From IMG/VR virus record IMGVR_UViG_3300018465_000004, positions 29,019 to 93,018 of that record: DNA of 64,000 nucleotides; one strand, written 5' to 3'. Position 1 is the stretch's first letter. The number at the start of each line of letters is the position of its first letter. The position numbers were made by a program, and so were the translations under genes. The stretch is from a virus. The notes under the pieces were generated by a model that made no database searches, had not been told where the DNA came from, and saw nothing but the letters and a program-made list of their open reading frames with translations. Shown here piece by piece: positions 28,953-58,095 of the stretch.

Positions 28953-31028
28953 GTGGCCGAACCCGAGGAGATGCTCGGCTTCTACGCCTCCGCTGGCGGG
29001 GGAGGCGGAGCCGTCGACAGCGTTGCCGGCCGGACCGGAGACGTGGTCCTGACCAAGTCCGACGTCGGCCTGTCCAACGTGGACAACACCACCGACGCCG
29101 GCAAGCCGGTCTCCACCGCCCAGGCCACCGCCGACAACCTGCGGGTCCTCAAGGCCGGCGACACCATGTCCGGCGACCTCAGCATGGGGTCAGCCGTCAA
29201 GATCGTTTGGGCAAGCGACACCAACCTCTACCGGTCCGCGGCAGACACCCTTACGACCGACGACAGACTTTCCGTCCTGCGAACCGCCTCCGGCGCTAGC
29301 CTGTACATCGACAACCGCGATGCAAACGGCAGCATTCTCTCCACCGCCACAGCGGTCGGATCCTCCGGCTACCTGCTGGGTTCCGCGGTTGTTGGAGATA
29401 CCACCAGTCGGTTCGTGGTTCGGCCTAGCGGCCAGCTGGAATGGGGCACTGGCCTCGCGGCCTGCGACACCATCCTTTACCGCAGTGCCGCCGACACTCT
29501 GAAGACCGACGACTCATTCCACCTCGGAGGGGTCGGAGCCGCCCTCAAATTCACCAGCACGAACCCCGGTGGCATCATCGCCGAGGATCTCGACGTGTCC
29601 TCCAGTGGCAACGTATTGCTGTACACCAAGGTCACCGGGGAGGCCAACCGCCGCTTCCAGCTCCGCAACAGCGGGCGAATGGACTGGGGTGCCGGCGGAG
29701 CCACCGCCATGGACACCAACCTCTACCGTTCGGCAGCCGATCTGCTGCGCACCGACGACGCGTTTATCGTCTCGACCAGCCAAGCCAACGTATGGGCGCA
29801 CACCGTCACCAACACCAGCGCCACTGGACATGGCGTCGCGGTATCGGTCGGAGCCGCCGCCGGGAATTGTTTCGGAGCCACGGTATCCGGCGACGCGTTT
29901 TACCGGTACTTCATCGACGGTTCCGGCAAGGTCACCTGGGGATCCGGCGCTGTCGCCGGAGACACAAACCTCTATCGCGGTGGCGTAGATCTGCTGAAAA
30001 CCGATGACAGTTTGGAGGTCGGTCCGGCTGCCAGCTACTTGAAACTCAACAACAACGGGACCGACCCGCAGATCGCCGCTGAGGGCTCGTCGGCCAACCA
30101 CCACCTGGTCCTCACACCGAAGGGGGTCGGTTCGGTCAAGGTCGCCAACTCCGGCATCCTGTTCGGTGCAGACACTAACCTCTACCGCAGCGCAGCGGAC
30201 ACGCTTAAGACGGACGACGCCTTCTCGGCTGCTGCCGCCATCACCGCGTTCGACGGCGGCACCAAGGCAACCCAGATCACAAACGCCGGGATCAAACTGG
30301 TCGGCTCGGACACCGACCAGACCATGTCCCTGCAAGCCAAGGGCATCGGAACTGTCCGGATCAACAATGCAGTCGGAGACGGCACTGGCGGACTCCTGGT
30401 CTATTCCGGCGGAGCCTCCCCGGCTCTGCGAGCCCAGGTTGGTCCCTCCATCGCCGCAGATCTCCGCCCAGCAGCTGGCAGCGACGGGGTCAGGATCCTC
30501 AAGGAAGGCGAAGCCTTCCACCGGATCCGGCTGACCGACAGCGGACAGATCCTGCTCAGCGACGGCGCCAACGCCGCCGACACCAACCTATACCGGTCCG
30601 CAGCCGACAACCTCAAGACCGACGACATGCTCTGGGTCGCACCTAGCCAGGCCGCCCTGTTTGCGCTGACAGCAACCAACGCAAACGCAACAGGCAACGG
30701 GCTAATTGCCCGTGGCGGCGGTACCGGCACCACGGCAGGCAGTTTCGGTGTGGTTGGCGACGCCAACGCCCGCTTCGCGGTTCTCGGCTCCGGCCGGCTT
30801 GAGTTCGGCGACGGCACCGCGGCAGCAGACACCAACCTCTACCGCAGCGCCGCGAACGTTCTCAAGACCGATGACGCGCTGTCCATCGCCGGCAACGTCG
30901 GCTTCTACGGCACGACGCCCGCCGCCAAGCCGACCGTCACCGGCTCACGCACGGATGGAACTGCGCTCACCTCGCTGCTTACTGCCCTGGCCACGCTCGG
31001 CCTGATCACCGACTCGACCACCGCATGA
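28953..31028 (+). CDS. Tail fibre-like repeat protein
   Basis: SVAGRTGDVVLTKSDVGLSNVDNTTD..KPVSTAQ fibre motif; seven DT[NI]LYR...L[KRT]TDD repeats. Confidence 0.75.
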   Translation: MAEPEEMLGFYASAGGGGGAVDSVAGRTGDVVLTKSDVGLSNVDNTTDAGKPVSTAQATADNLRVLKAGDTMSGDLSMGSAVKIVWASDTNLYRSAADTLTTDDRLSVLRTASGASLYIDNRDANGSILSTATAVGSSGYLLGSAVVGDTTSRFVVRPSGQLEWGTGLAACDTILYRSAADTLKTDDSFHLGGVGAALKFTSTNPGGIIAEDLDVSSSGNVLLYTKVTGEANRRFQLRNSGRMDWGAGGATAMDTNLYRSAADLLRTDDAFIVSTSQANVWAHTVTNTSATGHGVAVSVGAAAGNCFGATVSGDAFYRYFIDGSGKVTWGSGAVAGDTNLYRGGVDLLKTDDSLEVGPAASYLKLNNNGTDPQIAAEGSSANHHLVLTPKGVGSVKVANSGILFGADTNLYRSAADTLKTDDAFSAAAAITAFDGGTKATQITNAGIKLVGSDTDQTMSLQAKGIGTVRINNAVGDGTGGLLVYSGGASPALRAQVGPSIAADLRPAAGSDGVRILKEGEAFHRIRLTDSGQILLSDGANAADTNLYRSAADNLKTDDMLWVAPSQAALFALTATNANATGNGLIARGGGTGTTAGSFGVVGDANARFAVLGSGRLEFGDGTAAADTNLYRSAANVLKTDDALSIAGNVGFYGTTPAAKPTVTGSRTDGTALTSLLTALATLGLITDSTTA

Positions 31029-51350: not shown

Positions 51351-51704
51351 ATGGATAGCCTGCCGATCCACGTCCTGACTGACATTCAGGCCCGCAAGAT
51401 CGTCGACCACATGAGCGCCTTCGAGGCGGTCATCCTCGGCGGACGGGTCGATGGCACCGACATCCGCGTCCCCGGCATGAAGTTCCCGTTCGTGCCGACC
51501 CGTCATCACACCAAGGTCGACTGCCGGTTCTGTGACAGCCAGATCTGGATCGGCCCCAGCAGCCTCGACATTAGTCGCATGACGGGTAACCACCCGATGT
51601 GCACGCTTTGCTTTGCGGCTGGCCGATCTCTGCTCGGTGAGACAGTTCGGATCCGGCTTCAATACGCCGGCCACCAAACGCCGCCGGATCTGCGTCAGCC
51701 CTAA
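51351..51704 (+). CDS. Hypothetical protein with two CxxC motifs
   Basis: CRFC, CTLC. Confidence 0.55.
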   Translation: MDSLPIHVLTDIQARKIVDHMSAFEAVILGGRVDGTDIRVPGMKFPFVPTRHHTKVDCRFCDSQIWIGPSSLDISRMTGNHPMCTLCFAAGRSLLGETVRIRLQYAGHQTPPDLRQP

Positions 51705-51886
51705 CAGCAGCCGTCCGCCGGGTCCTCCCTGAGCACCATCTCCACCACCCGGTCCACGGACGCGACAAGGCGCGGGTCTGTGCTCGTCATTAGCTCGTGG
51801 AAGGGCATCGACGTGACGTCGACCAGGAGCCAGTCTTCGGGTAGAGGCCAGCTACCCTCCCCGGGGTCACTCGCGGTACCGTTCAT
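51701..51886 (-). CDS. FxSxx-COOH (FxsA)-like RiPP leader peptide lacking the FxS core
   Basis: LLVDVTSMPFHELMTSTDPRLVASVDRVV; TCGACC-N18-TACTCT promoter 7 nt before ATG. Confidence 0.5.
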   Translation of the reverse strand: MNGTASDPGEGSWPLPEDWLLVDVTSMPFHELMTSTDPRLVASVDRVVEMVLREDPADGCC

Positions 51887-51922
51887 CTCTCTGAGAGTAC
51901 GCGCTCGCATAGGGAGGGGTCG

Positions 51923-52186
51923 ATGGCTAGCGCGGGGCACAGCGGTGGAACGCCCGACACCGCCACCTTGTACGGCTGGATGAGCCGGAACCAGGATGGG
52001 GCCGAGGGTGTGATCACGGTCCAATCACCGAGTCTTGGTCTCGTGCCGTTGATCGCCAACGACGAGCGGCACGCACGGTCCTTCCGGAACCTAGCGCGTC
52101 AGGCCGCCATGCACCGCGGCTACGCAGCCCTCCTCGTCGCATTCGACCGGCGGCCGGGCGAGCCGCTCGACGTGGTCGATCACTAG
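51923..52186 (+). CDS. Hypothetical protein
   Basis: GGGAGG RBS. Confidence 0.6.
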   Translation: MASAGHSGGTPDTATLYGWMSRNQDGAEGVITVQSPSLGLVPLIANDERHARSFRNLARQAAMHRGYAALLVAFDRRPGEPLDVVDH

Positions 52187-52232: not shown

Positions 52233-52490
52233 GTGAAGCAGCCCGAGCTTGACCCGTCCGGCGCAGATGTTGAGCGTTCGCGACAAGCGAAAGTCGTACA
52301 CGCCGCCAGAATCCCGGTGCAGTACTCCGAGGCACTGGAGGCCGAAGCCACCCGACGCGGCATCACCCCGAGCGCGTTGATCTGTGAGTTCGTCATCGCC
52401 GGCTTGAGGGGCCTCGGGGACGACACCGTCGTTTCCGTCAGAGCTTCGGATCTTCATCGGGCCATCGACCAGGCGATCCGGGCGGCATGA
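52233..52490 (+). CDS. RHH/CopG-like DNA-binding protein
   Basis: HAARIPVQYSEALEAEATRRGITPSALICEFV. Confidence 0.65.
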   Translation: MKQPELDPSGADVERSRQAKVVHAARIPVQYSEALEAEATRRGITPSALICEFVIAGLRGLGDDTVVSVRASDLHRAIDQAIRAA

Positions 52491-57399: not shown

Positions 57400-57714
57400 C
57401 TGTCTGTTCACAGAGGGCAAGGTGAGTTCGATCAAAAGCTGGTTCAACGCCCGGTGGCCGTATCTGAGGCTGTGCACGGCACGGTGGTGCCTGCGCGGGC
57501 AGATCTACGACTACCGCTGCTACCGCCACCAACGGCATGCCTGAGCCGTTCCTCCGGTCGGAACTCGGTCGGGGTCCCGAGGCGACCCTGGACATGACGC
57601 GGCGCATCCGTGCCCTGCGAGCAACCGGGGCCGACATCCTGACAGCCCTGTGGATCCGCCACCTGATCGCCACCACCGGAGACGGCTATGTCTACGACTT
57701 TGCGACCGAACGCG

Positions 57715-58095
57715 ATGAAGCCCTCGCAGGCGACCCCGCCCAATAGGTTCGACCGCTTCGCCACCGCCGTCGCCGGCTGGGTTGCCCGCGGCTGGTTCTT
57801 CGCAGCATGTGTGGCCCTGGTCGTCGCCTGGGGACCGACAATCCTGCTGGTCCGCGACATCGACACCTGGCAGCTGTTGATCAACACACCGACCACCATC
57901 ATCACCTTCCTCCTGGTCGCGCTGATCCAGAACACCCAGGCCCGGGACAGCCGGGCCGTTCACCGCAAGCTCAACGCCATCGCCGACGCGGTGGCCGACC
58001 TGATGGAGTCCACACCAGACTCAACCGGTGAACTCGTCCGCGACGTTGACGAGCTGCGTGCAGCCGTCGGCCTGGAAAGCCGGGAAGGGACATGA
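57715..58095 (+). CDS. Low-affinity iron permease (Fet4-like) family protein
   Basis: DTWQLLINTPTTIITFLLVALIQNTQARDSRAVHRKLNAI. Confidence 0.85.
   Translation: MKPSQATPPNRFDRFATAVAGWVARGWFFAACVALVVAWGPTILLVRDIDTWQLLINTPTTIITFLLVALIQNTQARDSRAVHRKLNAIADAVADLMESTPDSTGELVRDVDELRAAVGLESREGT

Follow-up and report, generated by a model that had tools for sequence, protein, structure and literature searches.

Our findings point to a short phage gene whose product shares the leader of host FxsA-type precursor peptides and carries cysteines where these precursors carry their modifiable core. We read this peptide, with a confidence that falls a little short of even, as a leader-guided, thiol-tipped inhibitor of a host maturase, a reading that draws on the leader, the register of the tail and the predicted docking of the peptide on the alphaKG-HExxH Fe(II) enzyme of a stand-in host. 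The gene is a 61-codon open reading frame (ORF) in a 137,600-base (137.6-kb) IMG/VR virus record, IMGVR_UViG_3300018465_000004, which is rated 100% complete, has 67% GC and is an actinophage. Unless stated otherwise, coordinates refer to the window, the whole stretch of 64,000 nucleotides (positions 29,019 to 93,018 of the record) that was analyzed.

Results

The peptide gene and its promoter

The original prediction had described an antisense ORF of 61 amino acids ending DPADGCC, and this ORF is indeed present, running from 51886 to 51701 on the minus strand and followed by TAG (Table 1). Its GC content by codon position (0.66/0.47/0.84) resembles that of other phage genes; the corresponding values for the overlapping plus-strand frame are 0.59/0.69/0.65. 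In comparisons with nine relatives, pN was lower than pS in every pair (0.27-0.43 vs 0.47-0.77), which indicates that the reading frame is under selection, and on these sequence grounds we regard the ORF as a real gene. The plus strand opposite the end of the ORF (51653-51733) holds an imperfect inverted repeat and gives the best TIGR04268 match of the genome (14.8 bits, E 0.0056). A second gene or an inversion at this position was rejected, as the frame lacks a start codon and is not kept in the relatives, and the match is read as chance.

Table 1. Features of the peptide gene and its flanks, in window coordinates.
Feature	Position	Strand	Basis or remark
61-aa gene, Cys-tailed relative of FxsA / HExxH-cluster precursor peptides	51701..51886	-	codon bias, 13 relatives, pN<pS
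Leader-like segment, residues 21-52	51731..51826	-	LVDV strand, short helix 29-33, Asp-Pro, long helix 38-54; predicted HExxH docking surface
Linker, residues 53-59	51710..51730	-	length equal to host helix 2-to-core linker
C-terminal Cys60-Cys61	51704..51709	-	+14/+15 relative to Arg46, where host cores have their cross-linked aromatic residue
-10 hexamer TACTCT	51894..51899	-	7 nt ahead of ATG; leaderless transcript inferred
-35-like TCGACC	51918..51923	-	18-nt spacer; overlaps divergent ORF start, uncertain
Convergent neighbor, 117 aa, without family	51351..51704	+	stop codon overlaps peptide stop; context gene only
Divergent neighbor, 87 aa, without family	51923..52186	+	context gene only

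The sequence TCGACC-N18-TACTCT, previously claimed as a promoter, lies exactly as described, with TCGACC at 51923-51918 and TACTCT at 51899-51894, though it was not called by a strict sigma-70 scan. The TCGACC hexamer shares nucleotides with the start codon of the divergent ORF at 51923 and with its Shine-Dalgarno spacer, and may be an incidental by-product of that start. The -10 hexamer is better supported by sequence comparison than the -35: a [TC]AnnnT hexamer stands 5-7 nt ahead of the ATG in half of the ten relatives with available DNA, in two independent settings (CATAGT at 5 nt in a tRNA-array setting represented by four loci, and TACAAT at 7 nt in the second setting), against a background of 3.1% of all ATGs in the phage genome. 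An in-frame ATG at 51910 sits between the two hexamers and would be untranscribed from the proposed promoter. The peptide is thus probably expressed leaderless from a promoter of its own. Neither the 117-aa nor the 87-aa flanking ORF has relatives in IMG/VR. An 85-aa ORF at 52233-52490 (+) gives a weak match to BrnA-type antitoxins (E 0.013) and is probably a ribbon-helix-helix protein.

The phage genome

The phage encodes a tyrosine recombinase, together with an Lsr2-like gene and an XRE/DUF397-like pair (G000:C1 9122-9514 and 23023-24121 of the complete genome, named by sequence resemblance). The best matches of the Lsr2-like and XRE/DUF397-like genes among five test genomes are in Micromonospora, a weak indication that the host leans to Micromonosporaceae. 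Profile searches of the complete phage genome returned no match to FxsB (TIGR04269), HExxH (TIGR04267) or STAND-TPR (NF040586) proteins. With FxsB, HExxH and FxsT missing from the phage, any partner of the peptide has to be supplied by the host. The sole genome-wide match to the radical SAM family PF04055 lies just past the end of the window (94616-97585 of the genome) and encodes a 989-aa TIGR03960-like B12-binding radical SAM protein with a long, unassigned C-terminal part. We disfavor this protein as a maturase acting in trans, given its B12/TIGR03960 type, which is not FxsB, and its distance of ~14 kb from the peptide gene. A gene of the low-affinity iron permease (Fet4-like) family (57688-58095, +), with 53-60% identity to copies on Rhodococcus plasmids, is found 6 kb from the peptide gene.

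Homology of the leader

A phmmer search of 1.8 billion representative sequences returned six relatives of the ORF (E 1e-6 to 6e-4), and two profile rounds enlarged these to 13, giving a family of 14 with the ORF itself. Only this unindexed search yielded the relatives, which were absent from a word-indexed protein search, from IMG/VR locus scans and from GenBank phages and plasmids. The suggested comparison with TIGR04268 gave a divided answer. The ORF alone matched nothing in family scans (NCBIfam including TIGR04268; Pfam), but nine of 11 relatives matched TIGR04268 at E<=1, and seven that were rescored reached 19-32 bits, of which only P0014 exceeds the curated cut-off of 28 bits; many relatives also carry Pfam PF27839. 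An HMM built from 31 independently found host leaders scores the ORF at 11.2 bits, a value equaled by one in 5000 shuffles, and a broad FxsA HMM in which Kitasatospora/Micromonospora types predominate scores it at only ~5 bits. At the level of profiles, hhalign aligned the Cys-tailed family with the host leader alignment at 95.5% (E 1.4e-8), and the family profile recovers host precursors at up to E 5e-9 per genome. An unbiased six-frame search covering 301 Micromonosporaceae genomes ranked four FxsA-type precursors among its top 30 matches, at least three of them directly upstream of FxsB. Atlas neighbors of the ORF are FxSxx-COOH clusters at 0.85-0.86, which we treat as a lead only. The leader residues of the ORF are kept across the 14 divergent family members. 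The resemblance to FxsA leaders in the original prediction is upheld by the six-frame search, by the host-leader HMM and hhalign, and by the TIGR04268 matches of the relatives, and homology of the ORF leader to the FxsA leader is supported. The leader tree does not resolve and neither demonstrates a single origin nor rejects one (p-AU 0.28), and a sequence search of the PDB found no relatives of the leader.

A cysteine tail in register with the host core

The relatives share 33-51% identity with the ORF (alignment A2), so that their common tail is not explained by near-copy identity. A cysteine lies at +13 to +17 from the helix-2 Arg in 13 of 14 members (the remaining member has no Cys), five members have Cys-Cys at exactly +14/+15, and the terminal residue is Cys in 11 of the 14. 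The tail takes the forms CC, CGC, WGC or a single C, as a Gly-Cys type motif. An aromatic-x-Ser (F-x-S-x-x) core is found in no member, and the ORF itself ends in Gly-Cys-Cys. Of 34 host precursor rows, in which one gene is counted twice, 24 have the cross-linked aromatic residue at +15, and a Cys anywhere in the last 22 residues is seen in three of 59 host precursors. The match between the cysteine positions and this aromatic position indicates that the host core has been replaced in register and not merely lost. The original view of a core-less, leader-only peptide thus holds for the missing FxSxx core but gives way to a conserved Gly-Cys tail that is in register with the aromatic residue of the core. 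When the tail was sought by DNA pattern scans, one already-known member was recovered, beside otherwise unrelated frames.

All relatives lie on short contigs (0.6-15 kb). Five are antisense neighbors of tRNA-Glu in arrays that comprise as many as 25 tRNA genes, and others adjoin an integrase, an RNA ligase, a ParB-like gene or an HNH nuclease. The large arrays (L213, L216, L217, L218 and L430) share the order Ser, Asp, Glu and then the antisense peptide gene, whose promoter region abuts tRNA-Glu. No maturase is visible beside the relatives on these contigs, and FxsB, HExxH and FxsT were not found on the five contigs tested. Viral origin is established for the present genome only; the contigs of the relatives resemble phage but could belong to other mobile elements. 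The family profile, searched over 401 class-wide and 301 Micromonosporaceae genomes, gave no Cys tail among its host matches, all of which are ordinary precursors whose tails are FxS, WxS, HxS or Arg-rich. An 89-aa protein, P0015, comprises two tandem leader-plus-WxS repeats and represents a doubled precursor.

The enzyme that accompanies the leader in host loci

In host genomes the leader is common to FxS, WxS, HxS and Arg-tail precursors, several of which occur without a radical SAM gene. Of 19 host loci tested, 18 have an HExxH gene adjoining the leader and only six have FxsB there; in this set no HExxH gene was detected at L390, and the leader of L397 was missed by the HMM and is known from another search. 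The HExxH gene follows the leader with or without FxsB in the loci examined, FxsT accompanies host loci too, and the host precursors that best match the family profile (L227-L229) come from clusters without FxsB. The constant neighbor of the leader in the loci checked is an alphaKG-HExxH Fe(II) enzyme, not FxsB. This agrees with the report of Kaur et al. (2020; PMC7159879) that a radical SAM enzyme accompanies the FxSxx type alone. In that work the HExxH protein was read as a peptidase; it has been reassigned as an alphaKG/Fe(II) hydroxylase, and HExxH enzymes carry out varied oxidative chemistry at peptide C-termini (PMC12636437). Its constancy beside the leader and this reassignment are the reasons why the HExxH enzyme, relatives of which have solved structures (22nu, 22ob, 8s5f), was chosen for modeling. 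One locus, L394 (5070-7640, +), presents an apparent FxsB-HExxH fusion that is due to a frameshift late in FxsB, and its enzyme was left out of the modeling for this reason.

Peptide residues 14-61 were modeled with the HExxH enzyme of a stand-in host (81-row alignment) and Fe. The predicted complex scored 0.92 in three runs, against 0.01 for the best control; in the calibration, 58 of 80 solved complexes reach the mark, as do two of 110 mismatched pairs, with the Fe ligand outside this calibration and the alignments custom-built. The runs agreed in at least 94% of contacts, with a partner pLDDT of at least 80. In the model, the leader packs on the N-terminal helices of the enzyme (36-51, 99-106) and on residues 332-336, and the predicted interface takes in His321, Glu322 and His325 of the HExxH motif and peptide residues 56-61. 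The best-defined contacts all lie within the leader, and a Cys-Fe contact was not seen in the output. The model supports docking of the leader on the host HExxH enzyme. As close cousins of true partners also pass, it shows a likeness to the natural precursor complex, and a genuine substrate would give the same prediction.

Discussion

In the mechanism that we propose, the phage would express, from its own leaderless promoter, a peptide with the recognition leader and linker of host FxsA-type precursors. The leader would dock this peptide on the alphaKG-HExxH Fe(II) enzyme encoded by Fxs-type clusters of the host, and possibly on FxsB too, and the linker would bring the terminal cysteines to the core aromatic position next to the metal, which they may ligate. 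Having no modifiable core, the peptide would act as a competitive inhibitor and maturation of the host peptide would stop. For this host peptide, a joint function with the TIR protein FxsC and the STAND-TPR protein FxsT has been predicted, in antiviral cell death or signaling, and halted maturation would be expected to damp this linked system. The original prediction of a decoy against a host system retains its mimic role, in keeping with a phage that has no cognate maturase, and the maturase on which the peptide docks in the model is HExxH. We infer, rather than observe, the disarming of a defense system, because the Fxs system is functionally uncharacterized (bioRxiv 10.64898/2026.10.19.760177). 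More tentative still is the wider proposal that actinophages hold a family of leader-targeted metalloenzyme inhibitors, precursor mimics in which the core has been swapped for a thiol warhead.

The predicted complex would fit a hijacked substrate equally well, in which case the Gly-Cys tail would be a new core type, modified by host HExxH or FxsB, and its product would antagonize the FxsT TPR receptor or give it a false signal. The occurrence of one leader with several tail types, both in the host loci and in PMC7159879, and the varied C-terminal chemistry of HExxH enzymes (PMC12636437) also speak for a substrate. We nevertheless consider it unlikely, since a Cys-tailed peptide and a maturase are paired at no locus, with none among the matches in ~700 host genome searches, and since the number and spacing of the cysteines appear to vary beyond what would be expected for a regioselective reaction. 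The register of the tail, which equals that of the residue cross-linked by FxsB, could instead point to radical SAM FxsB, whose open Fe-S site the terminal thiols could bind, or to the FxsT receptor, as the main target in place of HExxH. The FxsB-linked precursors among the top 30 six-frame matches and the presence of FxsT at host loci are consistent with this, yet the best-scoring host precursors (L227-L229) come from clusters that lack FxsB, and we think such a target quite improbable.

A stand-alone antisense gene with its own promoter, in a phage with a tyrosine recombinase and with one relative adjoining an integrase, would also suit a lysogen accessory gene, expressed from the prophage to tune or trigger the host system to the benefit of the prophage, for example against superinfecting phages; the lack of an intact core speaks against this reading, which we consider very unlikely. 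We give slightly less credence again to a captured leader with an unrelated job, such as a small metal-binding or redox peptide, or to a near-neutral remnant. The ORF has a score of only 11.2 bits on the independent host-leader HMM and misses TIGR04268, and vicinal cysteines generally bind metals, but purifying selection, the leader residues kept in 14 divergent members, the exact linker length and the high-confidence predicted fit to HExxH all argue against it.

Fxs-type clusters are widespread in filamentous actinomycetes, where their chemistry, but not their biological role, is known. That a phage carries such a mimic under selection provides indirect evidence of a phage conflict. At 50-60 aa, such a peptide is a ready reagent for use against purified HExxH or FxsB and in plating assays; the model indicates the HExxH N-terminal helices as the place of leader binding, and the phage peptide suggests a simple design for maturase inhibitors. 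If the inhibitor reading is correct, thiol-warhead mimics would constitute a new anti-defense mechanism aimed at peptide maturation and would offer the first phage-side evidence of an antiviral role for Fxs/HExxH clusters with TIR-STAND proteins, a defense role that is itself a prediction.

Compared with known systems, the phage peptide is closest to FxsA / FxSxx-COOH precursors (TIGR04268, PF27839; substrates of FxsB, TIGR04269), with which it shares an LxD[VL] strand, a short helix, Asp-Pro/Ser, an amphipathic helix with Arg, an equal linker length and a size of 50-65 aa. Unlike these precursors, it lacks the aromatic-x-Ser core and ends in a Gly-Cys motif, has no FxsB, HExxH or FxsT in cis, and is phage-borne, mostly antisense and leaderless in its start. 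It also resembles the RxD-type and other non-FxS precursors of HExxH-only actinobacterial clusters (PMC7159879), which have the same leader, a different tail and no radical SAM enzyme and are the best-scoring host matches to the family profile; these, in contrast, are chromosomal and directly upstream of their own HExxH gene. The leader family is thus already known, and the Cys-tail type is absent from the four published tail types (PMC7159879). The host system on which the peptide would act, TIR-ParA (FxsC/FxsT), is presented as a predicted apoptosis system coupled to FxsAB and called uncharacterized in the accessible text of bioRxiv 10.64898/2026.10.19.760177, which describes no phage-side mimic. 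No precedent for a phage-borne mimic of a RiPP precursor was found in the subscription-free literature searched. Phage mimics that inhibit defense include T7 Ocr, the Dmd antitoxin mimic and RNA anti-CRISPRs, in which a phage copy of a host ligand or component occupies a defense protein. The peptide described here differs from these in its proposed target, a RiPP maturase, and inhibition of such an enzyme is a plausible new anti-defense mechanism.
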